The notes beneath the pieces are model-generated. The model was given only the letters and a program-made list of their open reading frames with translations. It was not told the origin of the DNA and ran no database searches. From positions 2,720,001 to 2,784,000 of the forward strand of contig OY970342.1 of assembly GCA_963717505.1 (NCBI GenBank): a stretch of DNA of 64,000 nt, written 5' to 3'. The position numbers were made by a program, and so were the translations under genes. The DNA comes from Candidatus Eiseniibacteriota bacterium (lineage in GTDB: Bacteria; Eisenbacteria; RBG-16-71-46). Positions 14,753 to 52,725 of this stretch are shown piece by piece; positions within the stretch are counted from its first letter, which is position 1, and each line of letters begins with the position of its first letter.

Positions 14753-14773
14753 GCCGGAGCCCTGTCGCACCGC

Positions 14774-25594: not shown

Positions 25595-25624
25595 TTGACG
25601 CCGCGTCGAGCGAGTCCCTAATCT
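25595..25624 (+). promoter_or_regulatory. putative sigma70 promoter of the mrp-iscS-pdx-ccm operon
   Basis: TTGACG - 18 nt - TAATCT in the divergent intergenic region. Confidence 0.5.
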
Positions 25625-25749
25625 AACGTGTTCGACACCACCGACGAAGGTCGGTGCGTCCGCCCACCGGCGCACGACGTCCGGGCCGCATGCCGAGAAA
25701 CGAGTCTCGTTGCCCGCCGTGACGGTCGGGCCGAGGGGGAGCCAGCGCG

Positions 25750-28031: not shown

Positions 28032-28070
28032 CGGCCGGGAACGGACCGGCCGCGAGAAGGAGGTAAACTC

Positions 28071-28988: not shown

Positions 28989-28994
28989 CGTGGC

Positions 28995-31979: not shown

Positions 31980-31983
31980 CCTC

Positions 31984-32663
31984 ATGAAGCTCGCCCCGCT
32001 CAAATGGCTTCTGCTGCTGTGGATCGCGGCGTGGATCACGGCCGGGTTCCTGTGGGCCCCGCTGGTGCCCGGGCTCGGCGAGACCACACGCGTGCTTTAC
32101 TTCCACATCCCGGCGGCCTGGGTTACGGTGCTCGCGCTGGCGTGGTCCATGGTCCACAGCGTGCTCTACCTGAGGCGTCGACGCCTCGAGCACGACGATC
32201 ACGCGGCGGCGGCCGCGGAGTTGGGACTGATGTTCTGCATGATCGCCACCGTGAGCGGCTCGATGTGGGCGAAGGCGATATGGGACTCACTACTGGAACT
32301 GGGATCCGCGCGAGACCTCGATCTTCTTCCTGTTGCTGATCTACGGCGCCTACCTGGCGCTGCGCGGCGCGATCGAGGGCGACGAGCGCCGGGCGCGTCT
32401 GTCGGCGATCTACTCGGTGGTCGCCTTCGTCACCGTGCCGTTCCTGATCTTCATCGTGCCGCGCATCTACTTCACGCTGCATCCCGATCCCGCTCATCAA
32501 CGCGCGCGGCAAGGTCGACATGGATCCGCGCATCCGGATCGTCGTTCTTCGCGCATGCTGCATCGGGTTCACGGCTTTGTTCTTCTGGGTGCTGACCCTG
32601 CGAGTCCGGGTCACTCGACTCGCTCGCCGAGCCGCCGTGCGCGCGGCGGCCGAGGCGGCATGA
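31984..32663 (+). CDS. ccmC: cytochrome c biogenesis protein CcmC, frameshifted
   Basis: RVLYFHIPAAW, GSMWAK..W..YWNWDPRETS (WWD motif), LHP. Confidence 0.88.
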
Positions 32664-32673
32664 GGGAGGTGTG

Positions 32674-32781
32674 ATGGGCGCCAACGGAGTCGTGCTCGGT
32701 GTGGCCCTGCTCGCCTGGGGGCTGCTGTTCTTCTATCTCGTGCGCCTGGAGCGCCGCATCCGGGAGCTGGAGAAGTCATGA
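32674..32781 (+). CDS. ccmD: CcmD family small membrane protein
   Basis: 35-aa MGANGVVLGVALLAWGLLFFYLVRLERRIRELEKS between ccmC and ccmE, GGAGG RBS; too short for the ORF track. Confidence 0.8.
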   Translation: MGANGVVLGVALLAWGLLFFYLVRLERRIRELEKS

Positions 32782-33167
32782 ACCTCAAGAGTGATCGTGG
32801 CGATCGTACTGTTGGTCGTCGCCGGCGGGTTCGGGGTCACCAGCTTCCGCAAGTCGATGACCCCGTACATCTCGTTCGCCGAGGCCCGGCGCGCGACCGG
32901 GCATGGTCCAGGTGAACGGCGTGCTTGCCGACAAGAACTACGTGCTCAAGCGTGACGAGCAGTACCTCGCAGTTCGACCTCAAGGACGAGCGCGGCGAGG
33001 TGCTGCCGGTCGAGTACCGCGGCGTGATCCCCGGCAATTTCGACCAGGCGACCTCGATCGTCGCGATCGGCCGCTACCAGGACGGCCGCTTCGAGGCCGA
33101 CCAGCTGCTGGTCAAGTGTCCGTCGAAGTACCAGGCCGAAGCCGAACGGGGCGGAACCGCGACATGA
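32778..33167 (+). CDS. ccmE: heme chaperone CcmE, Cys-type (CxxxY), frameshifted
   Basis: N-terminal TM, PYISFAEA, VEYRGVIPGNF, LLVKCPSKY. Confidence 0.88.
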
Positions 33168-35368
33168 ACTTCGGGCAGATCCTCGGCTGGATTTCGCTCC
33201 TGGCCTCGCTGGCGGCGGGGCTGCTGTTCATGGCGGCCGCCGGCGGGCGCGAGTCGGCGCTCAAGCCCGCGCGCATCGCGTTCGGCGTGCAGTGGCTGGC
33301 GCTGCTCGGCCGCGCCGGGCTGCTCTGGTACATCCTGTTCAACCACCAGTTCCAGTACCAGTACGTCGCCTCGTACTCGTCGCACGTCGATGCCCGGCGC
33401 ACTACGTGTACGCGGCGTTCTGGGGCGGGCAGGAAGGCACGTTCCTGCTGTGGGCGCTGCTCACCGCGACGCTCGGACTGGTGCTCATGCGCGTGCGGCA
33501 TCCGCTGACGACGCCGGCGATGTTCTTCCTCAACCTGCCGCTGGTGATGCTGGCGCTGGTCACGGTGATGCGCGGCCCGTTCCTCGACGTTCGCGCCGGG
33601 GACGATCCCGGTCGACGGCAACGGCCTGAACCCGCTGCTGCAGGACCCGTGGATGACCATCCACCCGCCGGTGCTGTTCACCGGCTTCTCGTCGCTGGTC
33701 GGTGCCGTTCGCGATCGCGATGGCGGCGCTGGTGCGCCGCGACTACGACGGCTGGATCAAGCCGGTGCTGCCCTGGGTGGTGTTCTCGACCGCGATCCTG
33801 GCCACCGGTTTCATCATGGGCGGTGTGTGGGCCTACAAGGTGCTCGGCTGGGGCGGCTACTGGGGCTGGGACCCGGTCGAGAACGGCTCGCTGATCCCCT
33901 GGCTCTCGAACGTCGGCGCTGCTGCACGGACTGCTGGTCCAGCGCGTGACCGGGTAGCCTCCGGCGCACCAACTTCTTCCTCGCGATCACCTCGTACGTG
34001 CTCGTGCTCTACGCCTCGTTCCTGACCCGCAGCGGCGTGCTGGCCGACTTCTCGGTGCACTCGTTCGTGAACCTCGGGCTCAACGGCTTCCTGCTCTCGT
34101 TCCTGTTCCTGGTCATGATCGTCGGCTACGGCACGCTGCTCGTCCGCCTGCGCGACATCCCCGCGCCGCCGCAGCCGCTCGGCAACTTCTCGCGCGAGTC
34201 GATGATGTGGCTCGGCCAGCTGGTGTTCATGCTGATGTGCGCGCTGATCGCGGTCGGCATGAGCGCGCCGCTGATCACGCGGCTGTTCGGTCCGCCCTCG
34301 AACGTCCAGACCTCGTACTACAACCTGGTCAACGCTCCGCTGGCGGTGGCGCTCGGGCTGCTGCTCGGAATCGCGCCGCTGATGCGCTGGCGCCAGCAGG
34401 AGGCGCGGCCGCTCCTGCGCGCCGCGTGCCGTCGGTCGCTGGTCGCGGTCGCTGCGTGACGCTGGTCGCCGCGGTCGCTGCGGCGTGCGCGAGCCGATGC
34501 CGGCCGCGGTGGTGTTCGCGTGGCCTTCGCGCTGGCCGCGAACCTCGTCGTCGACGGTGCGCGGCTTCCGCGCCGGCTGGAAGCACGGCGTCGCCTACCT
34601 CGGTCACGCGGGCGTCGCGGTCCTGCTGATCGGCGTGGTCGCCTCGTCCGGATACGGCCGCTCGGTCCAGGTCCAGCTGCCGCGCGGCGAGGAGCGCAGC
34701 GCGCTCGGCTTCCAGCATGACGTTCGAGGGCATGCGGCAGGATCGCGAGGGCAAGGACCACGTCATGATCGCGGTGAACGCGTCCGGAGCGGCAATTCGA
34801 GGCGCTGCCGGCGATGTACTGGAGCGAGTTCAACCAGGGCTACATGAAGAAGCCGCACATCGAGCGCTTCCTGACCCACGACGTCTACATCTCGCCGCTC
34901 GAGATGGTCGGCGACGATCCCGCGGCCAGCGCGCTGTGGCTCGCCAAGGGCGAGACGCAAGCAGATCGGACAGGTCGCCTACACGTTCGTGGACTTCGAC
35001 GTCCAGGGCATGGGGACCGCGGAGATGCGAGTCGCGGCCCAGCTTGCGCGCCGAGATCGGCGGACGCACGGTGCCGGTGCGACCGCGCATCGAGATGAAC
35101 GGAGGGCGGCGTCCCCAACCGCGATTCCCGACTACCTGCCGGGCGGGGCTCGGTCTAGATCGTGTCGGTGGACGCCACGACCGGCCGGGTCGCGCTGGAA
35201 GTGCCCGGCATGCAGAAGCCCAGCGAGGGCGGAATCCTCGCGGTCGAGGTCAGCACCAAGCCGCTGATCAACCTGGTGTGGCTGGGCGCGATCCTGATGC
35301 TGGGCAGCGTGTTCTTGAGCATGGGGCGTCGCATCATCGACGTCCGGCGGGCGGCGGCGAGCGCCTGA
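33164..35368 (+). CDS. ccmF: cytochrome c heme lyase CcmF, multiple frameshifts
   Basis: WGGQEGTFLLW, GLNPLLQDPWMTIHPP, WAYKVLGWGGYWGWDPVEN, FLTRSG..SVHSF, KPLINLVWLG. Confidence 0.92.
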
Positions 35369-35404
35369 AGTTTCTGGGCATCGTTGGGTCGAGGGGAAGT
35401 ACAC

Positions 35405-35433
35405 TGGACAGGTGCACGGATGTGCAGTAGATT
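35405..35433 (+). promoter_or_regulatory. putative promoter of the dinB cassette with an embedded palindromic operator
   Basis: TGGACA - 17 nt - TAGATT; the spacer contains TGCAC-ggat-GTGCA (35413-35426). Confidence 0.5.
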
Positions 35434-35451
35434 CCGTTCGGTGCCCAGCCC

Positions 35452-35709
35452 ATGTTCGAGACCCTCAACGACCCGGTGGACGTACTCACCGCCTTCACCA
35501 ACGGAGCCATGGAGCCCCTCCGGTTCCGTTGGAAGGGCAAGGTGATCCGCGTCTCCAAGGTCACCGGACGCTGGACCCGGCGCGAAGGACAAGCCCTCCT
35601 GCGCTACTTCTCGGTCGAGGGGCCGGGAAGCGAAACCTACGAGCTGTGCTACGACCCTCGCGGACCGCGCTGGCTGCTGAGCCGAGCGTGGACCTCGGGC
35701 GGACGCTGA
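35452..35709 (+). CDS. small DUF6504-like protein upstream of dinB
   Basis: PLRFRWKGK..RV..VTGRW...RYFSV...YELCYD...RWLL pattern. Confidence 0.65.
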   Translation: MFETLNDPVDVLTAFTNGAMEPLRFRWKGKVIRVSKVTGRWTRREGQALLRYFSVEGPGSETYELCYDPRGPRWLLSRAWTSGGR

Positions 35710-35741
35710 GGAATCCCTTGGCTCCGCCGGTCTCGCGCGGA

Positions 35742-36954
35742 ATGATCCTGCTGGTGGACATGGACTCGTTCTTCGCCTCGGTCGAGCAGGCGCACCACCC
35801 CCACTTGCGCGGCCGGCCGGTGATCGTCTGCGGCGACCCTGAGCGCCGAGGGGTGGTGACCGCAGCTTCCTACGAGGCGCGGCCCTCGGGAGTCCACGCC
35901 GGAATGCGGCTCCAGGAGGCACGCCGCTTGTGCCCCGACGCCGAATACGTCGAGGGCAACCCCGACAAGTACGTCGCGATCTCGCTCCAGCTGCTCCAGC
36001 TCTATCTCGAGCTGACGCCCGACGTCGAACCCTTCAGCGTCGACGAGGCGTTTGTCGGACTCGGGCGCACCGACGCCCTCGGTGGCGAGTGCGGTCGAGA
36101 TCGCCGAAACCATTCAGCAGCGGATCTGGGACCGCTTCGGCCTCGGCGCCTCGATCGGCGTCGGGCCCAACAAGCTGGTGGCCAAGATGGCTGCAGGGGT
36201 GAACAAGCCGCGTGGGCTGACCGGGTTCGATGAGGCGGCTTTTCGCGCACATTTCTGGCCGCTCGACATTCGCGAGTTGTGGGGCGTCGGGCCGAAGCTC
36301 GCCGAGCGCATGCGGTCGCTCGGGATATCGACCGTCGGCGAGCTCGCCCGCGCCCCAGAACCCGTCTTGAAGAGCGCGTTCGGCATCATCGGCCCGCAGC
36401 TGCGCGAAGCCGCCTGGGGGCGAGACGACACGCCGCTCGTGCCCTACCATCGCGGCGTGGATGCCAAGTCCATGGGCCATGAGGTGACGTTGCCCGCCGA
36501 CGTCGAGAAACGCGATCAAGTGGGGGGTACGTTGCTACGGCTGTCGGATCAGGTTGCGCGCCGGCTGCGCAGCGAGGGTTATGTCGGCCGGGTGATCGCG
36601 ATCAAGCTGCGCGACCATCGCTTCCACACCCGGATCCGCCAGCGGGCGATCGAGGTGCCGACCGACGACTACGCCCTGATCTATTCGGTGGCCACCACGC
36701 TGCTCGACCAGCTGTGGCGCGGGGAGCCGTTGCGGCTGATCGGCGTCCACGTCTCGGGACTCGAGCGTCATGCGCCGCCGCAGGGCGAGCTGTTCGAGTC
36801 CGGGCGGCGCGCGCGCGAGCTGCGCGACGCCATGGACCGGGTCCGCAATCGACTCGGGGAGGCGAGTCTGGTCCCCGCCGGCTCGATCGGGCATCGGCGC
36901 CATCTCGGTCACGTTCCCTTCGGCACTCCCAATCGCGTCCCCGACCCGTCATGA
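35742..36954 (+). CDS. dinB: DNA polymerase IV (Y-family), one frameshift near 36065
   Basis: LVDMDSFFASVE, ASYEAR, SVDEAF, NKLVAKMA..NKPRG, LWGVG, KSMGHE, clamp-like motif QGELF. Confidence 0.93.
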
Positions 36955-37880: not shown

Positions 37881-40280
37881 ATGTTCGACTCGCGCGCTGC
37901 ACGTGGACTGGGCAAGACCGGCGTGCCGTTCGCCGCCTGGCTGTTCTTTGCGGTCGGTGCCGAGGCCCAGCCCGTAGTGCTGCAGGAGAACCTGGCCGAG
38001 ACCGACGGGGTCGTCTCGACGATCGTGCTGTCCAGCACCTCGGCCTTCATCGGGGGCGACTTCACCTACGTCGGCCCGCATACTGGTTGCGCCGTGCCGC
38101 TCGGCGTCACCACCGCGACGGCACCGGCCAGTTTCCCGAAGGTCGAAGGTGGCGACGTGCTCGCCATCGCGGCTGACGGCGCCGGCGGGTGGTTTCTCGC
38201 CGGCAGTTTCACGCACGTCAGTGGCGAGCCGCGGCATCATCTCGCGCACGTGCTCGCCGACATGACGCTCGATGGCGGATGGGATCCGGGAGCGGATCGA
38301 CCGGTGTACACCCTCGCGCTCGGGGGATCGACTCTCTACGTCGGTGGCGAGTTCACCTCGGTCGGCGCCCGGACGCGCCATCGGATCGGCGCAGTCGACG
38401 CCACGACCGGCATCGCGACGGCATGGAATCCGCGCGCGAACGCTGCGGTCCATACCCTGGTGGTCTCCGACACGACTCTGTTCGCAGGCGGCGCGTTCAC
38501 TACCATCGGTGGGACGGTGCGCACGCGGATTGCCCAGCTGAGCCTGGCGACCGGCGAGGCGACCGTGTGGCAGGCCGGCGCCAACGGTGTGGTGCAGACG
38601 CTGTGTCTCAATGGCTCGTCGCTCTATGCCGGCGGGTGGTTCACCAGCATCGGCGGCCAGCCGCGAAGTCGCATCGCCGCGCTCGACCGGAACACCGGTG
38701 CGCCCACTGCCTGGAATCCAGGGGCCAGTGATGCGGTTCAAACCCTCGCAATCTCGGGAACCACGCTCTATGTCGGCGGCCTGTTCACCACGCTCGGCGG
38801 CCAGCTGCGCGACTTCATCGGCGCGGTCGACGCGGTGTCCGGAGTGACCACCGCGTGGAACCCCGATCCCGACGACCCGGTGACGGCACTCGCGGTGCTC
38901 GATACCACGATCTACATCGGCGGGCCGTTCTCGAGCATCGGCGGGGCGCCGCGCAACTTCATCGCTGCGGTCGGCGCGGTCACCGGAGGCGCCACCGCCT
39001 GGAACCCGGGCGCCAATGGCAACGTGCGCGCAGTGCAGGCCGCCGGGAGCGCGGTGTTCGTGGGTGGCGCGTTCTCGAGCGCCGGCGGCCAGCCGCGGGC
39101 CAACATCGCCGAGCTGAACCTGGCCAGCGGCCAAGTGACCGCGTGGAATCCCGGCGCCAATAGCGTCGTGCAATCGTTGGCGCTTTCCGGATCGACGCTC
39201 TACGTGGGCGGGTGGTTCACCAGTATCGGCGGCCTGGCGCGCAACTACGCTGCCGCGTTCAATACCACAACCGGGTTGCCGACCTCCTGGAACCCGAACG
39301 CCAACGATTTCGTGTCCACCCTCGGCGTCAACGGGTCCACGATCTACGCGGGCGGCTGGTTCACCTTGATCGGCGGTCTGACCCGCAATCGCGTGGCCGC
39401 CCTCAACAACACGACCGGTGCTGCGCTGACCTGGAATCCCAACGTCGATGGCGACCTTCAAACTCTGGTGGTCTCCGGCAGCAACGTCTACGTCGGGGGC
39501 TTCTTCAACATTGTCGGCATCCAGCCGCGTGACTACCTGGCTGCGGTCAGCACTTCGACCGGACAGGCCACCGCGTGGAATCCGACTCCCGACGATTTCG
39601 TCTACGCCGTGATGCCGGCGGGCGGCCTGATCTACGTCGGTGGCTGGTTCACCGAGGTCGGCGAGGAGGCTCGCGAGCGGCTCGCGGCGCTGGACCCGAC
39701 CACCGGTCTCGCGACCGGGTGGAACCCGGGAGCCAACGACTACGTGCACGTGCTCGGAGCCGCGGGGAGCAACTTGTACGCGGGCGGCTGGTTCACCTTC
39801 ATCGGTGGACAGCCGCGCACCTACCTGGCGGCGATCGACGCGGTGACCGGGGAGGCGAAGCCCTGGGCCCCTGATCCCGACGGGCCGATCTACGCCATGG
39901 CGCTGTCGCCGACCGCGATCTACGTGGGTGGGGACTTCGCCGAAATCGCCGGCGGACGGCGCCGCAGCCTGGCGGGGATTCAGATCCCGGTGACGCTCGA
40001 TGTTCCCGGGTCGTCTGCGGCGCTGACCGCGTTCGCCTGGCCGAATCCGTTCCGCGATCGGGCGGTACTCCACTTCTCGCTGCCCGAAGCGGCCAATGTC
40101 ACCGTGCGCATTTTCGACGTGGGCGGCCGGGTGGTGGCGAACCCGATCGCGAACCAGCGGTACTCGGCCGGATCGCACATGGTCGAATGGCGGGGCGGCC
40201 CGGCGCCCGCCGGGGTCTATCTCTACCGCGTCCAGTCGGATCGGGCGCTGGCCAGCGGCAAGATCCTGCACGTCAAGTGA
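37881..40280 (+). CDS. secreted beta-propeller repeat protein with C-terminal FlgD/T9SS-like domain
   Basis: Signal peptide ending AEA-Q; about 14 repeats of ~48 aa (LYVGG.FT.IGG..R..IAA.D..TG..T.WNP); C-terminal WPNPF...GVYLYR. Confidence 0.85.
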   Translation: MFDSRAARGLGKTGVPFAAWLFFAVGAEAQPVVLQENLAETDGVVSTIVLSSTSAFIGGDFTYVGPHTGCAVPLGVTTATAPASFPKVEGGDVLAIAADGAGGWFLAGSFTHVSGEPRHHLAHVLADMTLDGGWDPGADRPVYTLALGGSTLYVGGEFTSVGARTRHRIGAVDATTGIATAWNPRANAAVHTLVVSDTTLFAGGAFTTIGGTVRTRIAQLSLATGEATVWQAGANGVVQTLCLNGSSLYAGGWFTSIGGQPRSRIAALDRNTGAPTAWNPGASDAVQTLAISGTTLYVGGLFTTLGGQLRDFIGAVDAVSGVTTAWNPDPDDPVTALAVLDTTIYIGGPFSSIGGAPRNFIAAVGAVTGGATAWNPGANGNVRAVQAAGSAVFVGGAFSSAGGQPRANIAELNLASGQVTAWNPGANSVVQSLALSGSTLYVGGWFTSIGGLARNYAAAFNTTTGLPTSWNPNANDFVSTLGVNGSTIYAGGWFTLIGGLTRNRVAALNNTTGAALTWNPNVDGDLQTLVVSGSNVYVGGFFNIVGIQPRDYLAAVSTSTGQATAWNPTPDDFVYAVMPAGGLIYVGGWFTEVGEEARERLAALDPTTGLATGWNPGANDYVHVLGAAGSNLYAGGWFTFIGGQPRTYLAAIDAVTGEAKPWAPDPDGPIYAMALSPTAIYVGGDFAEIAGGRRRSLAGIQIPVTLDVPGSSAALTAFAWPNPFRDRAVLHFSLPEAANVTVRIFDVGGRVVANPIANQRYSAGSHMVEWRGGPAPAGVYLYRVQSDRALASGKILHVK

Positions 40281-40432: not shown

Positions 40433-41077
40433 TTGCGTCACGCCCTGGGGGCGTTGCTGTGCCTGGCGGTGCCGACCGCGCTGCTGGTCAACTCCTGTGG
40501 CAGTTCGGCGCCGGGACTGGCGCGCGGAGGGCAGCTCTACGACACCTGTGTCCCCTGTCATGGAGAGCAGGGGCAAGGGGATCGCACCCTCGGCGCGCCG
40601 GCGATCGCGGGCTTGCCCCAGTGGTACATCGAGGCCCAGTTGACCAAGTTCAAGGGCGGTGTCCGCGGTGCGCATCCGGAGGACGTCGAAGGTGCCCGGA
40701 TGCGTCCCATGGCGCGCACGTTGTCGAAGGCGACCGACGTCACCTCCGTCGCCCAGTACGTCGCCGGTCTCACCGAGGTCCACCCGGCGCACACGCTCCA
40801 GGGGGGCGATCCGCAGGCTGGCAGCGAGCGCTACAAGACCGTGTGCGTGGTGTGCCACGGCACCGACGGTCGCGGCATGGAGCCGCTCAAATCGCCGAGC
40901 CTGGTCGCTCAGGCCGACTGGTACATGCTCTCGCAGCTGAGAAAGTTCAAGAGCGGCATGCGGGGCGCCCACCCCGAGGACATCACCGGCTCGCAGATGC
41001 GGGCCATGGCGATGACCCTCGAGGACGAGAAAGCGATGATGGACGTCATCGCCTACATCCAGACGCTGTCGCGATAG
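40433..41077 (+). CDS. di-heme c-type cytochrome (cytochrome c4-like, probable lipoprotein)
   Basis: CVPCH and CVVCH, each followed by a distal Met; LVNSC lipobox-like segment. Confidence 0.88.
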   Translation: MRHALGALLCLAVPTALLVNSCGSSAPGLARGGQLYDTCVPCHGEQGQGDRTLGAPAIAGLPQWYIEAQLTKFKGGVRGAHPEDVEGARMRPMARTLSKATDVTSVAQYVAGLTEVHPAHTLQGGDPQAGSERYKTVCVVCHGTDGRGMEPLKSPSLVAQADWYMLSQLRKFKSGMRGAHPEDITGSQMRAMAMTLEDEKAMMDVIAYIQTLSR

Positions 41078-41089
41078 GGGGCGAACCAC

Positions 41090-41218
41090 ATGGCAGACAA
41101 CGAGCGCGACGAAGACTGGGGCCCGAAGACCGCCCGCCTGACGTTCGTCGCCACCCTGCTCGGCGCGGCCGCGTTCGTCGGTTCGGTGATCTTCTTCATC
41201 CTGAGCCGAAAGGCCTAG
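41090..41218 (+). CDS. 42-aa single-TM protein in the oxidase operon
   Basis: MADNERDEDWGPKTARLTFVATLLGAAAFVGSVIFFILSRKA, tightly packed between the cytochrome c and subunit II. Confidence 0.7.
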   Translation: MADNERDEDWGPKTARLTFVATLLGAAAFVGSVIFFILSRKA

Positions 41219-41222
41219 CGCC

Positions 41223-41933
41223 ATGATCGACACGCTCGTCAAGAGCCTCTCCAGCTACGCCGGCGACATCGACCGGCTGTTCCTGCTGGTCACGATCCTG
41301 GTCGGGTTCTGGTTCATCCTGGCCGAGATCATGTTCTTCTGGCTGATCTTCCGTTTCCGGGCCAAGCCGGGGGTGCCGGCCCTGTACCTGTCCGACAAGG
41401 ACAAGACGGTCAAGCGCTGGATCAACATTCCGCACTGGCTGATCATCGGCTGCGACGTCGTGATCATCGCCGCCGCGATCAAGGTCTGGACCTACGTCAA
41501 GCAGACGCTGCCGCCGGCCGACGCGACGATTCGCGTGACCGGCCAGCAATGGGTGTGGACGTTCGAGCATCCCGGTCCCGACGGAAAGCTGGACACCGCC
41601 GACGACATCGCGATCAGCGACGAGCTGCACGTCGAGGTCGGCAAGACCTACCACTTCCTGCTCGAGTCGAAGGACGTCCTGCACAGCTTCTCGGTGCCGG
41701 TATTCCGGCTCAAGCAGGACGCGGTTCCCGGGCGGACGATCACCGGCTGGTTCAAGCCGACCGGGCCGGGAACCCACGACATCCAGTGTGCGGAAATGTG
41801 CGGCATCGGCCACGGCGTCATGATGGGCCGGATCTTCCTCGAGACGCCGGAGCAGCACGCAGCCTGGGTGCAGAAGCACGCGCCCCCGGCGCTGGCCGCG
41901 GCTCCGGACACCCTCCCACAGGCGGTGCATTGA
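41223..41933 (+). CDS. coxB: heme-copper oxidase subunit II (CuA)
   Basis: Two TM helices, GQQWVWTF, DVLHSF, KQDAVPG, CAEMCGIGHGVM. Confidence 0.93.
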   Translation: MIDTLVKSLSSYAGDIDRLFLLVTILVGFWFILAEIMFFWLIFRFRAKPGVPALYLSDKDKTVKRWINIPHWLIIGCDVVIIAAAIKVWTYVKQTLPPADATIRVTGQQWVWTFEHPGPDGKLDTADDIAISDELHVEVGKTYHFLLESKDVLHSFSVPVFRLKQDAVPGRTITGWFKPTGPGTHDIQCAEMCGIGHGVMMGRIFLETPEQHAAWVQKHAPPALAAAPDTLPQAVH

Positions 41934-43660
41934 TGGCGCAACACGCGAGCGGCGACGCCCACGCGGCTACGGCCGATCACGGCCACGGCGGCGGGCACGG
42001 GCACGCGAAACAGTCCTTCTTCCACAAGTACCTGTGGTCGACCGACCACAAGATCATCGCCTTCCAGTACCTGTTCACCGGGCTGGCGATGGGGCTGGTC
42101 GGCGCGTTCATGGCGTACGTGTTCCGCATGCAGCTCGCGTTCCCCGGCCAGCCGGTGCCGTTCTGGGGCGTCGTGTCGCCCGGCGAGTACAACGCGCTGG
42201 TCACCAACCACGGCAGCATCATGATCTTCTGGGTCGCGATGCCGGTGCTGGTCGCGGCATTTGGCAACTTCCTGATCCCGTTGATGGTCGGCTGTGACGA
42301 CATGGTGTTCCCGCGCATCAACCGGCTCAGCTATCAGATCTTCCTGTTGAGCGCGATCCTGATCATCGCCTCGTTGTTCGTGAAGGGCGGCGGCTTCGGC
42401 GGCGCCTGGACCGCGTACCCGCCGCTGTCGGCCGGCGGCAAGTTCAACCTGACACCTGCGGGCTCGACCATGTGGCTGATCGCGGTCGCCCTCGAATTCG
42501 TCGCCTTCCTGCTCGGCGGCATCAATTTCATCACCACCGCGATGAACTCACGGGCCCCGGGCATGAAGGCGCTCGACGTCCCGATCGTAGTCTGGTGCAT
42601 CGTCATCGCCAGCCTGTTGTTCATGGGCTCGGTCGGCCCGCTGATCGCCGGCGCGGTCATGCTGGTGTTCGACCAGCTGATCGGCACCGGGTTCTACGAT
42701 CCCTCTCGCGGCGGCGATCCGATCCTGTGGCAGCACCTGTTCTGGTTCTTCGGCCACCCCGAAGTCTACGTCGTGCTGCTGCCGGCCTTGGGCATCGTCG
42801 CCGACGTCATGGTGGTGTTCTCGCGCAAGAAACTGTTCGGCTACAAGCTGATCCTGCTCACGATCATCGCGACCGCGGTGCTCAGTTTCTTCGTCTGGGC
42901 CCACCACCAGTTCATCGCTGGCATCGATCCGCGCATGGCCAATGTGTTCACTGCGACCACGGTCATCATCTCGATTCCGATCGCCGAGATGTGCTTCCTG
43001 TACATCGCTACCCTGTACGGCGGCTCGATTCGACTGACCACGCCGATGCTCTGGGCGCTGGCGTTCATCGCCGAGTTCCTGATCGGTGGCGTCACCGGCA
43101 TCTACCTGGGGGCCAGCGGCGCCGACATCTACCTGCACGACACCTACTTCGTCGTCGCCCACTTCCACTACACGTTCTTCCCGATAGCGATCATCGGCAC
43201 GTTCTGCGGGCTGACCTTCTGGTTCCCGAAGATGTTCGGCAAGATGATGAACGACGGCCTGGGCAAGATCCATTTCTGGGGCACGATCATTCCGTTCAAC
43301 CTGATCTTCATTCCCCTGTTCTTCACGGGTGCTGCCGGCGACCATCGGCGGATCTTCGACTACACCAACTTCCCCGAGCTGTCGACGCCCTGGCTGCAGG
43401 GGCTGCGGATGACCGCGACCATCTCGCTGGTGGTCATGCTGCTGTTCCAGTTCGTGTTCTTCTACAACTTCATCGTCAGCCTGATCCGCGGTCGCAAGGC
43501 CGAGAAGAACCCGTGGCAGTCCAATACGCTCGAGTGGACGGCGGAGTCCCCGCCGCCTCATGGCAACTTCGAGACCATGCCGACCGTCTACCGCGGGCCC
43601 TACGAATACAGCGCGCCCGGCCGGTCGACCGACTTCTGGCCGCAGAACGAGAAGGCGTAG
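41933..43660 (+). CDS. coxA: heme-copper oxidase subunit I (A-family-like)
   Basis: STDHK, NHGSIMIF, DMVFPRIN, WTAYPPLS, WFFGHPEVY, WAHHQF, HDTYFVVAHFHY, HRRI; ATG at 41933. Confidence 0.95.
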   Translation: MAQHASGDAHAATADHGHGGGHGHAKQSFFHKYLWSTDHKIIAFQYLFTGLAMGLVGAFMAYVFRMQLAFPGQPVPFWGVVSPGEYNALVTNHGSIMIFWVAMPVLVAAFGNFLIPLMVGCDDMVFPRINRLSYQIFLLSAILIIASLFVKGGGFGGAWTAYPPLSAGGKFNLTPAGSTMWLIAVALEFVAFLLGGINFITTAMNSRAPGMKALDVPIVVWCIVIASLLFMGSVGPLIAGAVMLVFDQLIGTGFYDPSRGGDPILWQHLFWFFGHPEVYVVLLPALGIVADVMVVFSRKKLFGYKLILLTIIATAVLSFFVWAHHQFIAGIDPRMANVFTATTVIISIPIAEMCFLYIATLYGGSIRLTTPMLWALAFIAEFLIGGVTGIYLGASGADIYLHDTYFVVAHFHYTFFPIAIIGTFCGLTFWFPKMFGKMMNDGLGKIHFWGTIIPFNLIFIPLFFTGAAGDHRRIFDYTNFPELSTPWLQGLRMTATISLVVMLLFQFVFFYNFIVSLIRGRKAEKNPWQSNTLEWTAESPPPHGNFETMPTVYRGPYEYSAPGRSTDFWPQNEKA

Positions 43661-43666
43661 GGGCCC

Positions 43667-44239
43667 GTGGAAAAGACGATTGCCGCCCAGCGCAGCGCGA
43701 TGAACATCCCGACCGGACGGTTGGGAGTGTGGTGGGTGCTGGTCTCCGAAATCGTGATCTTCGGCGGGATTCTCGTCTCCTACATCATGCATCGGCTCGC
43801 GCATCCGGAGTGGGGGCACCAGGCGGCGAACACCAACATGTGGATCGGTGCGTTCAACACGCTGGTGCTGTTGACCTCGAGCCTGTCGGCAGTGCTCGCC
43901 CACCAGGCGGCCGAGGCGGGCAATGGCAAGAAGGCGGCCAAACTCCTGCTGGCAACCGTCGGCGGCGGCGCGATATTCCTGATCGTCAAGTCGTACGAAT
44001 GGACCACGGAGATCATGCACGGCTTCACCATCACTTCGAGCGGCTTCTGGTCCTACTACTACACCGCGGCCGGCCTGCACGCGTTCCACGTCGCCGCCGG
44101 GATGTGCGTCATGCTCTGGGTCGCGAGCACGGCGTGGAAGAACCAGGAGCTGCATCGCGTCGAGAACGTGGGCATCTACTGGCACTTCGTCGACATCGTC
44201 TGGATCTTCCTGTTCCCCTTGCTGTACATCGCCAAGTAG
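43667..44239 (+). CDS. coxC: heme-copper oxidase subunit III (short form)
   Basis: SEIVIFG, NTLVLLTSS, GLHAFHV, YWHFVDIVWIFLFPLLY. Confidence 0.9.
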   Translation: MEKTIAAQRSAMNIPTGRLGVWWVLVSEIVIFGGILVSYIMHRLAHPEWGHQAANTNMWIGAFNTLVLLTSSLSAVLAHQAAEAGNGKKAAKLLLATVGGGAIFLIVKSYEWTTEIMHGFTITSSGFWSYYYTAAGLHAFHVAAGMCVMLWVASTAWKNQELHRVENVGIYWHFVDIVWIFLFPLLYIAK

Positions 44240-44249
44240 GGACGAACGC

Positions 44250-44738
44250 ATGAGCGCACACGCCGCCTCGCACGCATCGGGTCACGGACACCACCGGAAC
44301 TACGTGCGGATCTGGATGATCCTGGTCGGGCTGCTGGTGGTCAGCGTGGTCGGACCGATGTTCGGCATCCGGGTGCTGACGCTGATCACCGCGTTCGGTG
44401 TCGCGTTGGTCAAGGCCTACATGGTGGCGAAGAACTTCATGCACTTGGACATCGAGAAGCCGATCGTCGGCTGGATGCTGGCGATCGCGCTGACGTTCAT
44501 GGTGCTCATGTTCTCGGGGATCGCGCCGGACGTCATGAAGTCCCAGGGCCGCTCGTGGCAGAAGGGCCCGGGCTTTCACCCGGTGGAGAAGGTCGGGCAC
44601 GAGTCCGACGGACACGGAGCCGCCGGGGCCTCCGGGACCACAGAGCACGGAGGCGCGACCACCGGCACCGGAAGTTCGAAACACGGGAGCACGGGTGCTG
44701 CGACGGGAGACTCGAGTGGGAGCAGCAGCGGCCACTGA
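44250..44738 (+). CDS. cytochrome c oxidase subunit IV family protein with His/Gly/Ser-rich tail
   Basis: VKAYMVAKNFMHL motif, three TM helices. Confidence 0.8.
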   Translation: MSAHAASHASGHGHHRNYVRIWMILVGLLVVSVVGPMFGIRVLTLITAFGVALVKAYMVAKNFMHLDIEKPIVGWMLAIALTFMVLMFSGIAPDVMKSQGRSWQKGPGFHPVEKVGHESDGHGAAGASGTTEHGGATTGTGSSKHGSTGAATGDSSGSSSGH

Positions 44739-45309
44739 CGGCGGCACGGTCGCCCGCCGCACGCGCATCGCCGAGGACGGCGTCTTCGGCATGGCGCTGT
44801 TCGTGTTCGTCGAGGTCATGCTGTTCGCCGGGTTCATCTCGGCGTTCGTCGTGGTCGAGAACACGGCCCTGCCCGGCATGTGGCCGCCGCCGGGGCAGCC
44901 GCGCCTGCCGGTCGCGACCACCGCGTTCAACACCCTGGCTCTGTTCGCCAGCGGGGTCTTTCTGTTCCTGTCGCAACGCGCGTTTCAGCGGGGAGCGCAG
45001 GCGGTCGCCGCCCGCTGGCTGGGAATCGCGGTCCTGCTCGGCGCCTTCTTCGTCGGTTTCCAGGGGATCGAGTGGGCGCGCCTGCTGTCTCAGGGTCTGA
45101 CGCTGACCTCGAGTCAGCTCGGCGCCTTCTTCTACGTCATCGTGGGCGCCCATGCGCTCCATGCGGTCTCGGCGCTGGTACTGCTCGCACTGCAATGGCG
45201 GGCGCTCAAGGCGCAGCGGCTGACCCGCTCCGCGTTCGGGGCCGGCCAGCTGTTCTGGTACTTTGTGGTCCTGATATGGCCCGTCATCTACGTGCAGGTC
45301 TATCTCTAG
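44716..45309 (+). CDS. second subunit III-like protein
   Basis: FVEVMLFAGF, NTLAL, GFQGIEW, GAHALHA, FWYFVVLIWP. Confidence 0.85.
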   Translation: MGAAAATDGGTVARRTRIAEDGVFGMALFVFVEVMLFAGFISAFVVVENTALPGMWPPPGQPRLPVATTAFNTLALFASGVFLFLSQRAFQRGAQAVAARWLGIAVLLGAFFVGFQGIEWARLLSQGLTLTSSQLGAFFYVIVGAHALHAVSALVLLALQWRALKAQRLTRSAFGAGQLFWYFVVLIWPVIYVQVYL

Positions 45310-45323
45310 CTCGATCTCTGGCG

Positions 45324-45581
45324 GTGGTTGCCACGGTGCTGCTGCCCGCGGCTGCCCATGCCTGTGCGGTGTGTGGCGCCGGTCTGCAGGATCGAAGCGC
45401 GAACGCCTTCGTCGGGATCACGGCCCTCTTGTCCCTGCTGCCGATGGGAATGATCGGGGCCGGGCTATGGTGGACCCGCCGCAATCTGTGGTCGAGCCTG
45501 GGCGGGAATCCGGACGATCGAGCCTCCGACCCCGAAGACCACACGCCGCCCGAGCCGCCGAACGCCCAGCCGGGCGCGTGA
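45324..45581 (+). CDS. small CxxC membrane protein of the oxidase operon
   Basis: Signal-like segment AAAHA-CAVCG followed by one TM helix; start uncertain. Confidence 0.55.
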   Translation: MVATVLLPAAAHACAVCGAGLQDRSANAFVGITALLSLLPMGMIGAGLWWTRRNLWSSLGGNPDDRASDPEDHTPPEPPNAQPGA

Positions 45582-46234
45582 TGCGGATCCGACGTCGGGC
45601 GCGCAAGCCGCCCGCCATGTGGCTTCGCCTGGCATTGTTGGGCGCGGCTCTGGGAGTGGCGGCGTTCGCGACCGCGCGGCTCGTCGACCGCGAGAACCCC
45701 TCGGGGGCCGCCTCGGCCACCGACTGGAAGTCCGAGCCGTTCCCTGCGGACTACCCACGCGGCGAAGCCCCGTGCCCCGATTTTCAGCTGGTGGATCAGG
45801 CCGGAACGCCCTTCGGTCCGGCGCGATTGCGGGGCCGTCCCGCCGTCGTGGCGTTCGTCTTCTCGCACTGCCAGGCGATTTGTCCCGGCCTGGTGCACGA
45901 CGTGCGCGAGGCCGCTCGCGCCGTGGGACCCGACGCCGCCCAGCTGGTCCTGATCACGATCGATCCGGCGCGCGACTCGCCTGCGGTGCTGCCCAGGATC
46001 GCGAGCGAATGGCAGCTGGGTCCGTCGGAGTGGCTGCTCTCCGGGCCACCGTCCGAAGTCGAGCGTCTGCTCGACGCGTTCGACGTGGCCCGAGCCCCCG
46101 ACGCCCTGACCGGCGAGGTCGCCCACCCGCCGCTGGTCGTGATTCTCGATCCGCAGGGCCGGCAGGCGTATCGCTTGAATGCGCCGCCGATCGCGTGGAT
46201 CGCCGACGCCGTGCGCCGCAGTCGCACCCGCTAG
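45581..46234 (+). CDS. SCO family copper chaperone
   Basis: FQLVDQ, FSHCQAICP (CxxxC), ITIDPARDSP, conserved His in VAH. Confidence 0.88.
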   Translation: MRIRRRARKPPAMWLRLALLGAALGVAAFATARLVDRENPSGAASATDWKSEPFPADYPRGEAPCPDFQLVDQAGTPFGPARLRGRPAVVAFVFSHCQAICPGLVHDVREAARAVGPDAAQLVLITIDPARDSPAVLPRIASEWQLGPSEWLLSGPPSEVERLLDAFDVARAPDALTGEVAHPPLVVILDPQGRQAYRLNAPPIAWIADAVRRSRTR

Positions 46235-47293
46235 AGTCGGGTGCGGACCTCGCTCGCCGCGCGCCGGTCGGTGGTCAGCTCGACGTGCTTGCCCTGGATG
46301 AACGCCTCGCCTCTTCGACGTCTTCCCGGCTGCCGATGAACAGCGGCGTGCGCTCGTGGAGCGTGCCGGGGGCGATCTCCATGATGCGGCGCACGCCGTC
46401 GCTCGCCGCGCCGCCGGCCTGCTCGGCGATGAACGCGAGCGGCGCCGCCTCGTAGAGCACGCGCAGCTTGCCGCTGCGGGTTCTTGCGATCGCCGGGGTA
46501 GAGGAAGATGCCGCCGTAGAGCAGGTTGCGGTGGAAGTCGGCGACCAGCGAGCCGACGTAGCGCGCGCTGTAGGGCCGGCCGGTCGTCCGCGTCCTCCAT
46601 CTTGAGCCAGTCCACGTAGCGCTTGACGCCCGTCGTCCCAGCTGGACGTAGTTGCCCTCGTTGACGCTGTAGATGTGCCCGCGCGTCGGGGTGCGGATGT
46701 TGGGGTGCGAGAGCAGGAACTCGCCGACGCTCGGCTCGAACGTGAAGCCGTGGACGCCGTCGCCGGTGGTGTAGACCAGCATCGTGCTCGAGCCGTACAT
46801 CACGTAGCCGGCGCACAGCTGGCGGCGGCCGGCCTGCAGGCAGTCCTCGACCGTGCCGCTCCCCTTCTGCGTGATCCGCGGCAGGATCGAGAAGATCGTG
46901 CCGATGTTGACGTTGGCGTTGATGTTCGACGAGCCGTCGAGCGGGTCGAAGTTGACCACGTACTTGCCGATCGGCTGGCCACTCGGCGACCGGGATGATG
47001 TCCTCGTCCTCTTCGGAGGCCATCACCGCGAGCTGGCCGGTCGAGCCGAGCACGCGGTAGATGGTCGTCGTGCGCGAACACGGTCGAGCTTCTGCACCTT
47101 CTCGCCGTGGACGTTCTCGCCGCCGGTGTAGCCGAGCATGTCGACCAGGCCGGCGCGCGATCACCTCGCGGTTGATCATCTTGGCCGCGAGCGCGATGTC
47201 GTGCAGCACGCTGGTGAACTCGCCGCTGGCCTCGGGGTGGATGCGCTCCTGCTGCAGGATGAACTGCGACAGCGTGACGGCGCGGTCGGTCAT
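46231..47293 (-). CDS. fbp: class 1 fructose-1,6-bisphosphatase, frameshifted
   Basis: [74 protein letters not shown]. Confidence 0.93.
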
Positions 47294-47301
47294 GGCGTCC
47301 T

Positions 47302-48711
47302 CTAGTCCGAGAGTCCGGTCACGTCCTCGGGGCCGCTGCGCGGCGCCGACGCGGCCGCCGAGCGCCGGGAACGAGCCGGGAACGAACGGCGCGTGCTGCT
47401 CGGCCAGCGCGCGCGTGCCTGGCCACGTCGAGCTGCTCGAGCAGGAAGGTGAACTTCTCCTCGAGCGCGCGCGCCGATCGCCGTCGCGCGATCGGCGCCG
47501 GCATGCCCCACATCTCGCGCTTGAACAGGCCGAGCGCCTTCTTGCGCGTCTTGTAGAAGAACTGCTCGTCGGTGTCGCGTGGCCTTGCGCTCGTCGGCGG
47601 CTGCGGTGCGCAGGCGTCTCGTAGATCGCGCGCTTGAGGTCGGCGGGGAACGCCGGGTGGTCGAAGAGCATGTTCTGGAACTCGGTCGCCAGGTGGATCT
47701 CGCACGCGCCGAGCTTGGGGAAGCGGTCGAACAGCTCCGGCCGGCAGCGTCGAGGCGCCGTGCTGCACCGCGCCGGCCATGCCGTACTGCTCGCGCGCCA
47801 GCTTCGAGCAGCGTCTCGAGCGCGTCGAAGTCGATCTTGACCTGGGCGATCGAGCCGTCGGGCAGCGGCACGCCGCCGTGGCTGGTGCCGGTCTGGATCG
47901 AGATCTTGCTCATGCCGGCGGTACCGGGCGCGTGCTTGCTCGAGCGCCGCCCGGTAGACCGTCATGAACGCGTCGCAGCTCCTCGGGGGTCGAGTTCTTG
48001 CCGCCGACCTCGCCGATCTCGCCGCCGACCGAGACCGTGACGCCCTTGGGCTCGCGGCCGCGGATGAACGCGGTGATCTCGCGCGCACAGGTCGCCGTTC
48101 AGCCGCCTGCTGCGCCTCGTGGCCCGGCTTCGACAGATCGACCAGCGTCGAGGTGTCGACGTCGATGTTGTAGAAGCCGGCCTGGATCGCCTCGGCGGTC
48201 AGCTCCTGCGACCGGCTTGCAGCTCGGCGGTCGGATCGGTCGCGTACTTCTTGGCGTTGATCTGGAAGTGATCGCCCTGGATGAACACCGGGCCCTTCCA
48301 GCCCTCGCGCAGCGCCGCGGCCAGGACCACGAACGCGTACTCGGCGGGTCGCTGGTCGGTGTAGCTGATCTCGGAGCGCGCGATCTCGCAGATCACCGCC
48401 CCGGCGTCGAGCTGCCGGCGGGCGCGGAACAGGGCGCGGGCGGTGTCGTAGGCGACGCCGCGGATGTTGATCGCCGGCACCGTGAAGTCGGCCGGGGCCT
48501 CGCCGCGGCCGCGCGCGATGTAGAGACCGTGGATCGAGGCCGGGTAGATGCCGGCCGAGCGGCACTGGTCGAGCACGGCGGCGCGAGCGGCGTCGCGCAG
48601 CTCGGCGGCTCCGAACACGCCGGTCCACACCAGGCGATCCAGGGCTTCGGGGCTGCTCGACGCCAAGGCGGCGACCGCATGCGTGAGTTCCTGCGGGTTC
48701 TTGAGTTCCAT
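47302..48711 (-). CDS. class II fructose-bisphosphate aldolase family protein, frameshifted
   Basis: [72 protein letters not shown]. Confidence 0.85.
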
Positions 48712-48846
48712 GGGGGGAAGGCTCCTGGGCTCGGGACCTCGGCCGGGGTCGACGGGCGGGAGCGCAGACCCTGGACGGACGACTCCGGGCGAGTATAGCG
48801 CCCGAGGTTCCGAGCCGGCCAGCGGCGTCGACCGGGTCGCGGTCGC

Positions 48847-49495
48847 CTACATGCAGTATCCGGTGCAGCTCGTGAACGAGAACGTGCTGAGCGACACCTG
48901 GAGCATCAACGACAGGTCGGCCGGGCTCAGACTGCCGTCGAAATTGAAGTCCGAGCGCTCGAAGAAGGTTCCGCTGAAGCGAATCGGGCAGCCATACCGA
49001 CATGTCCACCGGGTTCACGCCGCCGACGCCGTTCTGGTCGAACGTCGCGACCTTGGCGGTCGAGATTCCGACGCCCTCCATCAAGATCCGAGCGCAGTTG
49101 AGCGGATGCCCGGGGGCCGCTCCGGTCGCGTTGTTGGAGCTGCCGACGATCGTGAACGCGACGCGGCCGGCGCCGTCGGTGACGCCGTAGACCCGGTGGT
49201 CACCGCAATCGATCGTTTCGGCCCCGGGCTGGACCGCGCAGATTCGAACGTCCGGCGCGCATTGCGCGAAGTCGATCTCGACGCGGACGTTCCGGATCGG
49301 CAGGCCGGCGGCGCCACGGACCACGACCTCGAATCTGCCGAACGGATCGGGAACGCCGAGCAGCGTGCCGACCAGGTGGATGCCGGGCGGCAGATCGCAT
49401 TGCGAAGGATCGGGAACATCGGCTGCGGCGAAGCGGGCGGGCAGGAGCAGGACCGCGGCCAGGGCAAACGCCCACCGTGACTGGAGTCGGAACAT
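48847..49495 (-). CDS. secreted protein with C-terminal dockerin/EF-hand-like pair, one frameshift near 48985
   Basis: Signal peptide MFRLQSRWAFALAAVLLLPARFAAA; DQNGVGGVNPVD and, after the frameshift, DFNFDGSLSPAD Ca-binding-like loops; several Cys. Confidence 0.65.
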
Positions 49496-49714
49496 TTCAG
49501 TCTCCGGAGGTTTTCAACAACGAAGTTTCAAAAGATGTGAGTGGCGATCCGGCAGGGGGCGCGCCATGGTAGGTGCATCGGCGACCGGAGGAAAGGGAAT
49601 TCTTCGCGACACCGAACGTGTCGGAGGCGGTTGACACCCTTCGGGATCCAGTCTTGAATCGCGCTTCGAGCGCCGTTTCATGCTACCTGACATCGGAGAA
49701 CCGCAGTCGTGCCC

Positions 49715-50223
49715 ATGGCCCCAACCGTCTGCCGCCTGCGCGTGAACGGCGATCTCCGCGAGTGCGCGGTCACGCCGCAACACGACGCTGCTCGAGGCGC
49801 TGCGCTACGGCCTCGGCCTGACCGGCTCCAAGCAGGGCTGCGACAAGGGCGACTGCGGCGCCTGCACCGTGGTGGTCGACGGCGAAGCCGATCCTGGCCT
49901 GCATCTCGCTGGCGCTGGCGTACCACGACGGGCCGGAGATCACCACCATCGAGGGCATCGCTCGCGAACGGCGTGCCGCATCCGCTCCAGGACGCCTTCG
50001 ACGTCACCGGCGGCGCCCAGTGCGGGTTCTGCACCCCGGGAATCCTGATGAGCGCGTGGGCGCTGCTGCGCGCGCAACCCGAGCCCGACGCGCGACGAGA
50101 TCGCGCGCGCGCTGTCGGGCAACCTGTGCCGCTGCACCGGCTACACGAAGATCTTCGAGGCGGTCGAGCTGGCGGCGCGCGAGCATGCGCGAGCGCGCGA
50201 GCACGGAGGCGAGCGGCGCGTGA
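49715..50223 (+). CDS. xanthine dehydrogenase-family (2Fe-2S) subunit (HcrC-like), frameshifted
   Basis: [31 protein letters not shown]. Confidence 0.9.
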
Positions 50224-50245
50224 GCCGGCCGGCGCGAGGCCGGCG

Positions 50246-52719: not shown

Positions 52720-52725
52720 CGACCC

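Follow-up and report, generated by a model that had tools for sequence, protein, structure and literature searches.

Oxidase operon in the Eisenbacteria window

We analysed a stretch of 64,000 bp from the genome of a Candidatus Eiseniibacteriota bacterium (assembly GCA_963717505.1, contig OY970342.1, positions 2,720,001 to 2,784,000 of the forward strand; "the window" below, with coordinates counted from its first base; the genome is referred to as G000), which carries an operon for an aa3-type haem-copper oxidase whose K-pathway residues have been replaced. Seven co-directional genes on the + strand span 40433-46234, and the reading frames of the six that form the oxidase cassette are all open in the list of open reading frames. 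The cassette begins with a dihaem c-type cytochrome (c4-like; 40433..41077; two Pfam Cytochrom_C stretches, E 1.9e-21), which is likely the electron donor of the oxidase. It is followed by coxII (41223..41933; Pfam COX2, E 1.4e-16), encoding subunit II with its CuA site (ligands C189, C193, H197, and M200), and by coxI (41933..43660; Pfam COX1, E 8.5e-127), encoding an A1-type subunit I of 575 aa; the ATG of coxI and the TGA of coxII overlap by one base. Next come a short form of subunit III that is kept in the cassette (43667..44239, 190 aa; Pfam COX3, E 4e-20), a caa3-type small subunit IV (44250..44738; TIGR02229, 41.5 bits against a cut-off of 37.25; Pfam COX4_pro), and a second subunit III-like gene, III′ (44695..45309; Pfam COX3, E 9e-22), whose true start probably lies downstream of 44695. 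The seventh gene, for a SCO1/SenC copper chaperone (45371..46234, start uncertain; Pfam SCO1-SenC, E 1.9e-23), is not a constant member of the cassette elsewhere, and no downstream BLASTP match to it was found in other phyla; in one other locus (L077), for example, the cassette is followed by a thioredoxin-like gene and a DUF420 gene.

Catalytic core and K-pathway substitutions

A phmmer search of subunit I against all PDB chains gave the Rhodobacter sphaeroides subunit I as the top match (1m56_A, E 1.8e-123), and residues 287-389 align without gaps to R. sphaeroides 296-398 (helices VI-VIII). All six histidine ligands of haem a, haem a3, and CuB are retained: H93 (R. sphaeroides H102), H275 (H284), H324 and H325 (H333 and H334), and H410 and H412 (H419 and H421). 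So are the helix VI glutamate and the cross-linked tyrosine of the HPEVY motif at 275-279 (E277 at 42761 and Y279 at 42767, for E286 and Y288), the D-channel residues in and near the DMVFPRIN motif at 123-130 (D123 at 42299, N112, and N130, for D132, N121, and N139), the Mg-site pair H402/D403 (H411/D412), and the arginine pair R472/R473 (R481/R482). We then considered 121 close homologues, counting the window protein together with the 120 database sequences that match it best (75-90% identical): H275, H324, H325, H410, H412, E277, Y279, D123, N112, N130, H402/D403, and R472/R473 all occur in 121/121, and the H93 column, which this count leaves aside, is nearly invariant (≥90%) in the 83-row subunit I alignment (alignment A1). 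The CuA motif H...CxExCGxxHxxM is invariant in the subunit II alignment (alignment A2), and the haem A synthase CtaA is encoded elsewhere in the genome (135.4 bits), so that a CuA centre and haem A synthesis are both accounted for. The HPEVY motif with its glutamate and tyrosine places the enzyme in type A1 rather than A2.

The K-channel is where the A1 design is left. In subunit I, S299 of R. sphaeroides corresponds to A290 (42800, in the GIVAD motif at 287-291), T359 to I350 (42980), and K362 to M353 (ATG at 42989), the latter two in the IPIAEM motif at 348-353 of helix VIII; among the neighbouring positions, H300 has become D291, G360 has become A351, and I361 has become E352 (GAG at 42986). 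In subunit II, V63 (41409) stands where the canonical channel-entry glutamate, E101, would be; the K-bearing relatives have glutamate there in 48/48 loci. Thus an intact aa3-type (A1) core is combined with replacement of all four canonical K-pathway residues, and a sequence-only reading of the window, which had described the retained ligands and D-channel, the two exchanges and the new glutamate in helix VIII, and the missing subunit II glutamate, is borne out by the alignment to 1m56_A and by the homologue counts. Its remark on GIVAD holds for one of the two residues: the change from serine to alanine in helix VI is distinctive (serine in 78/81 K-bearing enzymes), but the aspartate is ordinary. 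D291 was considered as a new channel residue and rejected, since glutamate or aspartate is frequent there in K-bearing enzymes (31/81; histidine in 23/81).

The protein passes the Pfam COX1 model (424.1 bits against a cut-off of 34.8) and falls short of the NCBIfam model TIGR02891 CtaD_CoxA (569.3 against 670.75 bits). The AlphaFold2 (AF2) model of subunit I has a predicted local distance difference test score (pLDDT) of 92.6, with E352 and M353 within helix VIII (333-361); compared by Foldseek with solved A-family subunits I, it gives template-modelling scores (TM-scores) of 0.83-0.87 by model length and 0.63-0.96 by target length, and a root-mean-square deviation (rmsd) of ~2 Å for most chains. 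Several of the close homologues carry the NCBI label "cbb3-type cytochrome c oxidase subunit I", which is a misleading automatic name for these aa3-type proteins.

The substitutions could in principle be artefacts of sequencing or assembly, or belong to a decaying gene, and other parts of the window do look frameshifted (for example, the fructose-bisphosphatase gene is broken into pieces around 46231-46959). However, all six frames of the cassette are open, as the sequence-only reading had noted for the oxidase block. E352 and S347 (42971) are each found in 121/121 close homologues, as are alanine or glycine at 290 and isoleucine or valine at 350; position 353 is methionine, leucine, threonine, or alanine in 121/121, and lysine in 0/121. 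The signature recurs likewise in 44 loci from independent assemblies. Independent contigs agree at the key codons: a short-read contig from run X1, which may itself be the sample that the genome came from, spans 42796-43088 without a difference, and one from X6, of another study, spans 42731-43098 with 19 differences, none of them within 42952-43009; the runs other than X1 contribute small shares, and no RNA run is among those listed for the coxII-coxI stretch. We therefore reject the artefact or decay explanation, to which we assign practically no probability.

Residues specific to the K-less clade

We call the Glu352-bearing sequences E-type, and compared 121 of them with 81 K-bearing sequences and with seven sequences of a K-less sister clade (described below). 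Four of the residues that set E-type apart from the K-bearing enzymes are shared with the sister clade, where each is present in 7/7: A290 (117/121 of E-type; serine in 78/81 K-bearing), T314 in helix VII (42872; 117/121, isoleucine in 81/81), Q326 beside the CuB histidine pair (42908; 121/121, methionine in 77/81), and S347 (121/121, alanine in 73/81). Four others are found in E-type only: E352 (121/121, against isoleucine or valine in 80/81 K-bearing), T310 (42860; 118/121, alanine in 62/81), D122 beside the D-channel aspartate (42296; 121/121, proline in 43/81), and H471 before the arginine pair (43343; 110/121, proline in 68/81). The last of these belongs to a pair at 470-471 (43340-43345), above the haem propionates, which reads [E/D]-His in E-type and Met-Pro in the K-bearing enzymes (67 and 68 of 81, respectively); this makes a second change specific to the clade, and it lies on the side of proton exit.

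Subunit II has changed as well. In the paired loci, H71 (41433) and D78 (41454) are present in 44/44 E-type loci each and K64 (41412) in 38/44, whereas the canonical subunit II glutamate column holds glutamate in 6/44 E-type and in 48/48 K-bearing loci. Four residues, D78 among them, are inserted in the second transmembrane helix of subunit II (TM2; about 41451-41465), where 48/48 K-bearing loci have a gap. The K-less loci without E352 have the insertion and its D78 as well, in 14/14 (11 sister-type loci, one truncated E-type locus, and the locus of Puniceicoccaceae bacterium K14, which was fetched twice); H71 is missing from 11/11 sister-type loci. In the AF2 model of subunit II (pLDDT 93.3), residues 61-94 form one continuous helix (pLDDT ~97) with D78 in the middle, and K64, N68 (41424), H71, and D78 are spread over ~80 degrees of its circumference, by arithmetic at 100 degrees per residue. 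The K-pathway's entrance lies at the interface of subunit I helix VII and subunit II helix II, and the remainder of it between helices VI-VIII, according to the accessible text of PMC9335260; the new polar residues thus sit in helices VII and VIII and in subunit II TM2, the elements that build the K-pathway by that description.

The K14 isolate offers a natural rearrangement of this set. Its subunit I has isoleucine at 352 and leucine at 314, and its subunit II has glutamate at 68 and alanine in place of Trp66. Among 101 genomes sampled from its order, 16 matched at E ≤ 1e-120 and 9 have the E-type cassette; the eight E-type genomes besides K14 keep E352 and have alanine, serine, or threonine at subunit II position 68. 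The glutamate thus appears to have moved between subunits in K14, and this single swap event suggests that the interface may require a carboxylate at that level, and that either subunit may supply it.

Distribution of the cassette and its role in the cell

Wherever an E-type locus extends far enough, its genes run in the order cytochrome c - II - I - III - IV - III′, with III′ following subunit IV in nearly all E-type loci, while the flanking genes vary between loci (six loci annotated). No gene for the dihaem cytochrome was found upstream in those sister-type loci whose flanks are long (L090, L110, and L113). The GC content of E-type loci ranges from 37% to 68%, and their subunits I are 70-82% identical across at least five phyla, a pattern that would fit a six-gene cassette mobile across phyla.

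In the phylum of the window we searched 121 sampled genomes and obtained a match at E ≤ 1e-150 in 29 of them, matches not being copy numbers; the tally includes one unpublished genome, G015, without an E-type match. The E-type accounts for 21 of the 29 (75-82% identical), with one genome in family f3 and 20 in f1, G000 among the latter, and the sister type accounts for 8 (55-59% identical; seven in f7 and one in f15). Among named homologues, the closest bear the label Candidatus Eisenbacteria. A scan across phyla, using one genome per species, found E-type enzymes at 70-78% identity; among the matches listed are Gemmatimonadota (at least 4 records), Myxococcota together with "delta proteobacterium" (at least about 10), a metagenome-assembled genome (MAG) of Bdellovibrionaceae, an Eisenbacteria MAG, and two records with doubtful or no classification, as well as the E-type variant of the K14 isolate (Verrucomicrobiota); no Acidithiobacillus sequence was among them.

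In four genomes the E-type enzyme is the sole match to PF00115, and a search for cytochrome bd gave no match in any of the four: G000 (86.7% complete by marker genes, one contig), G039 (99%), G069 (90%), and G123, a Longimicrobiales MAG with a single 2.86-Mb chromosome. In the 20 E-type genomes of family f1, no PF00115 match exceeds that of the E-type enzyme itself; in 16 f1 genomes without E-type, the best matches range from 1e-143 to 1e-167. We read seven of these 16 (L011, L023, L026, L030, L035, L036, and L169), and 7/7 have IAIPTGVK in helix VIII together with the helix VI serine. E-type and canonical K-bearing aa3 are never found together within f1, so the two alternate between closely related genomes, and this extends to members of a single genus (g6, with the canonical enzyme in G008 and E-type in G039). 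The further PF00115 matches in these genomes (~395-405 bits) are probably fused cbb3 CcoN-CcoO proteins; for example, one of them (L167; G002:C11, frame from 1734) has CcoN and CcoO fused in one frame. Taken together, the E-type enzyme is most likely a working O2 reductase, and it seems to be the main one of the cell.

This distribution bears on the idea, raised by the sequence-only reading, that O2 might not be the main substrate of the enzyme, which would instead reduce NO or some other oxidant, for instance peroxide. The idea draws on a membrane glutamate that recalls the NO reductases (NORs), and G000 encodes a clade II NosZ (852.5 bits) and no recognised NOR (its one PF00115 match is the oxidase itself). 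However, the cross-linked tyrosine, the three CuB histidines, CuA, and the D-channel are all retained, whereas the NOR families (cNOR, qNOR, eNOR, sNOR, gNOR, and nNOR) are described as having no cross-linked tyrosine in the part of PMC11214002 available to us; neither that loss nor the altered active site of a NOR, for instance FeB with a glutamate ligand, is seen in the window enzyme. No NirK above the cut-off was found in G000, and no nir, nor, or nos genes were found beside the cassette in the six loci checked. Since the enzyme is the sole terminal oxidase found in four genomes and alternates with canonical aa3 in f1, it is better regarded as a working O2 reductase than as an NO reductase; we consider a primary role in NO or peroxide reduction very improbable, and that part of the earlier proposal is not upheld.

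Phylogeny and other K-less clades

A cluster search over 1.84 billion representatives returned few close relatives: among full-length representatives, P0123 is 76% and P0124 is 63% identical, and all further ones are at most 46% identical. We built a FastTree of 137 rows and a quick IQ-TREE of 52 rows, both unrooted, and they are concordant. The E-type sequences form one clade (support 100), which joins a K-less sister clade that has threonine or isoleucine at 353 and isoleucine or valine at 352 (support 100); the pair adjoins two K-bearing sequences, with a Shimodaira-Hasegawa (SH)-like support of 98 in FastTree and an SH-like approximate likelihood-ratio test (SH-aLRT) value of 85 in IQ-TREE. 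Of the 137 rows, 47 have neither lysine nor glutamine at the K position and 14 have glutamine. The lysine state changes at least seven times on the tree, and five of these changes are forced by well-supported branches, in a sample biased by its choice, the best 150 matches to a K-less query. Unrooted trees give no polarity; we favour loss of the K-pathway over gain, because an identical constellation of four residues would hardly have evolved time and again in distant K-bearing clades.

Other K-less groups were seen as well. Cluster look-up gave two informative names for them, a Kofleriaceae MAG and a Desulfurococcales MAG. An A-family group with glutamine in place of the lysine comprises 14 rows (P0167, P0184, P0187, P0199, P0201, P0203, P0207, P0214, P0215, P0228, P0252, P0253, P0257, and P0261) within a 17-row group (support 97); most of its proteins are about 780-860 aa long, with three rows of 652-681 aa, and they are probably fusions of subunits I and III. 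A further K-less A-family clade reads IPSV[IV]I in helix VIII and WFLAHPEVY in helix VI; its representatives P0130, P0264, P0247, P0236, and P0269 are 40-46% identical to the window protein, and it was found (loci L160-L166) in 7 of 101 genomes of the Verrucomicrobiota order of G121.

A candidate proton route

The K-pathway lysine is among the most studied residues of bioenergetics, and its mutational loss halts the enzyme. With the four K-pathway residues lost, the catalytic site, CuA, and the D-channel intact, and new invariant polar residues in place, we think it on balance probable that the E-type enzyme is a working A1 cytochrome c:O2 oxidoreductase in which the K-pathway has been replaced by a differently built proton path; this is the part of the sequence-only reading, namely a different proton route, that we retain. 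In such an enzyme the dihaem cytochrome c encoded just upstream would feed electrons to the oxidase, and the protons of the reductive phase would enter along subunit II TM2, by way of K64, residue 68 (asparagine, threonine, or serine), H71 with E352, and D78. The path would thus follow the interface of subunit I helices VII and VIII with subunit II TM2, to which helix VIII would contribute E352 and S347, and helix VII T310 and T314; from there protons could reach the cross-linked Tyr279 via hydroxyls and water (S347, T343, and T310/T314). We infer from the sequences that these residues conduct protons and face one another. A more specific form of the proposal is that the essential lysine has been replaced by acid and imidazole groups mainly on subunit II (Asp78 and His71) together with Glu352, giving a charge-inverted and partly relocated K-pathway in a cassette that is present in at least five phyla and would displace canonical aa3; this we put forward tentatively, as a possibility that may well turn out to be wrong.

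Several observations weigh against a replaced proton path of this kind. By helix periodicity, E352 lies ~100 degrees off the face of the canonical lysine, and S347 ~120 degrees in the opposite direction. The sister clade (55-60% identical) has D78 and is without E352 and H71, so E352 and H71 are not required by every K-less relative. The glutamate swap in K14 is a single event. Finally, the claim of a sole oxidase is weaker for G000, with its 86.7% completeness and frameshift-ridden stretches, than for G039 and G123.

The sister clade also suggests another arrangement, in which the enzyme is an O2 reductase with a lysine-free chain of hydroxyls and water (S347, T343, T314, T310, and Y279) resembling that of the B family, and E352, H71, and D78 are structural residues at the interface of subunits I and II: the sister enzymes, without E352 and H71, share S347, T314, A290, and Q326, and have threonine at 353. 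In Thermus thermophilus ba3 the counterpart of the K-pathway presumably runs through S309, T312, and T315 on helix VIII without a lysine, and S347 would match S309 by its i/i+3 spacing. S309 is named as a conserved channel residue in the accessible part of Murali et al. (2024; PMC11214002). However, D78 is invariant in the 44 E-type and the 14 other K-less loci, and a buried aspartate in mid-membrane is costly unless it is used; moreover, the K14 lineage shifted its glutamate from subunit I to subunit II and did not simply lose it. We regard a purely hydroxyl-based path with a structural Asp/His/Glu set as unlikely.

Alternatively, the enzyme may have no K-pathway at all and take up all of its protons through a reinforced D-channel, since the D-channel is intact and its entrance has been remodelled in E-type alone (D122 beside D123, R131, and Q135). 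To our knowledge, however, every characterised O2-reducing family keeps a K-type path, and the D-path is the dispensable one. The K362M mutant of R. sphaeroides is blocked in the reductive phase despite its intact D-channel; the structure of this mutant, 3om3, is among the Foldseek matches of the window protein. Such a scheme would also give no reason why new polar residues are conserved around the former K-path, and the B and C families have a single channel (Murali et al., 2024; PMC11214002, accessible text). We therefore hold uptake through the D-channel alone to be decidedly improbable, more so than the hydroxyl chain.

Comparison with known oxidases

Compared with the aa3 oxidases of R. 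sphaeroides and Paracoccus denitrificans (1m56 and 1ar1), the window enzyme has the same fold (TM-score 0.84-0.86 by model length, rmsd ~2 Å, 37-38% identity) and shares the metal ligands, HPEVY, the D-channel, the Mg-site histidine and aspartate, the arginine pair, and a CuA subunit II. Relative to R. sphaeroides, all of K362, T359, S299, and subunit II E101 are replaced, and the gains are E352, S347, T310, T314, Q326, D122, and [E/D]470-H471 in subunit I, and H71, D78, and the TM2 insertion in subunit II. The window cassette also differs from both in having a short subunit III and a second subunit III-like gene.

The sequence-only reading had cautioned that K-deficient A-family enzymes might already have been noted, and this caution was well placed: A-family oxidases that are K-less and have also lost the glutamate of subunit II are in print (10.1101/2020.03.01.968255; PMC8239418). 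In the preprint (10.1101/2020.03.01.968255), the cytochrome c oxidases (COX) of acidophilic Fe(II) oxidisers (the CoxBACD of the Acidithiobacillus rus operon and relatives in soil MAGs) have a hydrophobic residue in place of the lysine and a replaced subunit II glutamate, and keep the D-channel; loss of the K-channel is called a rare case by Degli Esposti et al. (10.1101/2020.03.01.968255), and several independent losses are reported among archaeal enzymes (PMC8239418). The window enzyme has in common with the rus-type COX both the hydrophobic exchange (M353) and the replaced subunit II glutamate (V63). The preprint also describes Gemmatimonadetes MAGs with rus-like COX clusters that include a c4-type dihaem cytochrome and a duplicated COX3 (10.1101/2020.03.01.968255); their make-up matches that of the window cassette, which may therefore be among the Gemmatimonadetes clusters already listed there. 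The two are set apart by the published description, in which the rus-type COX is of type A2, whereas E277 makes the window enzyme A1. The partners in the rus operon are cyc2 (an outer-membrane cytochrome), rusticyanin, and a Cyc1-like dihaem cytochrome. The window cassette encodes a dihaem cytochrome c, while neither the window nor six flanks showed a cupredoxin gene of the rusticyanin type or a cyc2-like gene, in a search that used no dedicated Cyc2 model. The accessible text of the preprint mentions no conserved helix VIII glutamate or subunit II histidine and aspartate (10.1101/2020.03.01.968255), and a literature text search, which is blind to motifs given only in figures, found no description of the Glu352/His71/Asp78 signature.

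The B-family ba3 of T. thermophilus resembles the window enzyme in having a lysine-free path at the K position, by the residue mapping that we presume above; its sequence similarity to the window subunit I is only distant (E about 1e-10, phmmer), and the B family is without the D-channel that the window enzyme keeps. We know of no mid-membrane aspartate in subunit II of ba3. What is new here is the conserved set of replacements, partly on subunit II, together with the spread of the cassette and its alternation with canonical aa3; K-loss in general is already in print.

A widespread natural enzyme thus keeps the rest of the A1 design, including the D-channel, without the lysine, threonine, serine, and subunit II glutamate of the K-pathway. 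If the Asp/His/Glu set works as proposed, whether the lysine serves as a proton carrier or as a charge switch would become testable against a natural alternative, subunit II would contribute beyond the channel entrance, and the signature could let automated annotation recognise such oxidases as functional. Metabolic reconstructions of Eisenbacteria, Gemmatimonadota, and Myxococcota MAGs hinge on whether this enzyme is counted as a working aerobic oxidase.

Other features of the window

Outside the operon, the regions at about 24000-36000 and 46000-54000 have few clean frames despite a high GC content at third codon positions (GC3); a C-terminal fragment of CcmF, for example, lies at 33998-34459. 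These broken frames suggest either indel errors of the assembly or real decay, which may account for the completeness estimate of the one-contig genome G000. A Rieske [2Fe-2S] protein gene at 59560-60051 (- strand; Pfam E 2.5e-10) is possibly part of a bc-type complex feeding the cytochrome c and the oxidase. A Cytochrom_D1 match at 58311-58550, considered as a candidate NirS, was rejected as a YncE-like beta-propeller. Directly upstream of the operon, at 37881-40280 (+), there is a gene for a 799-aa beta-propeller protein with DUF5122 repeats and a type IX secretion C-terminal sorting domain; it is not conserved beside the cassette in other phyla. Two giant tandem genes at 4697-14752 and 14698-23799 (+) encode proteins of 3351 and 3033 aa with 14-16 divergent InlB B-repeat (Flg_new_2) domains, the first ending in a FlgD Ig-like or sorting-type domain; both are probably secreted surface proteins.

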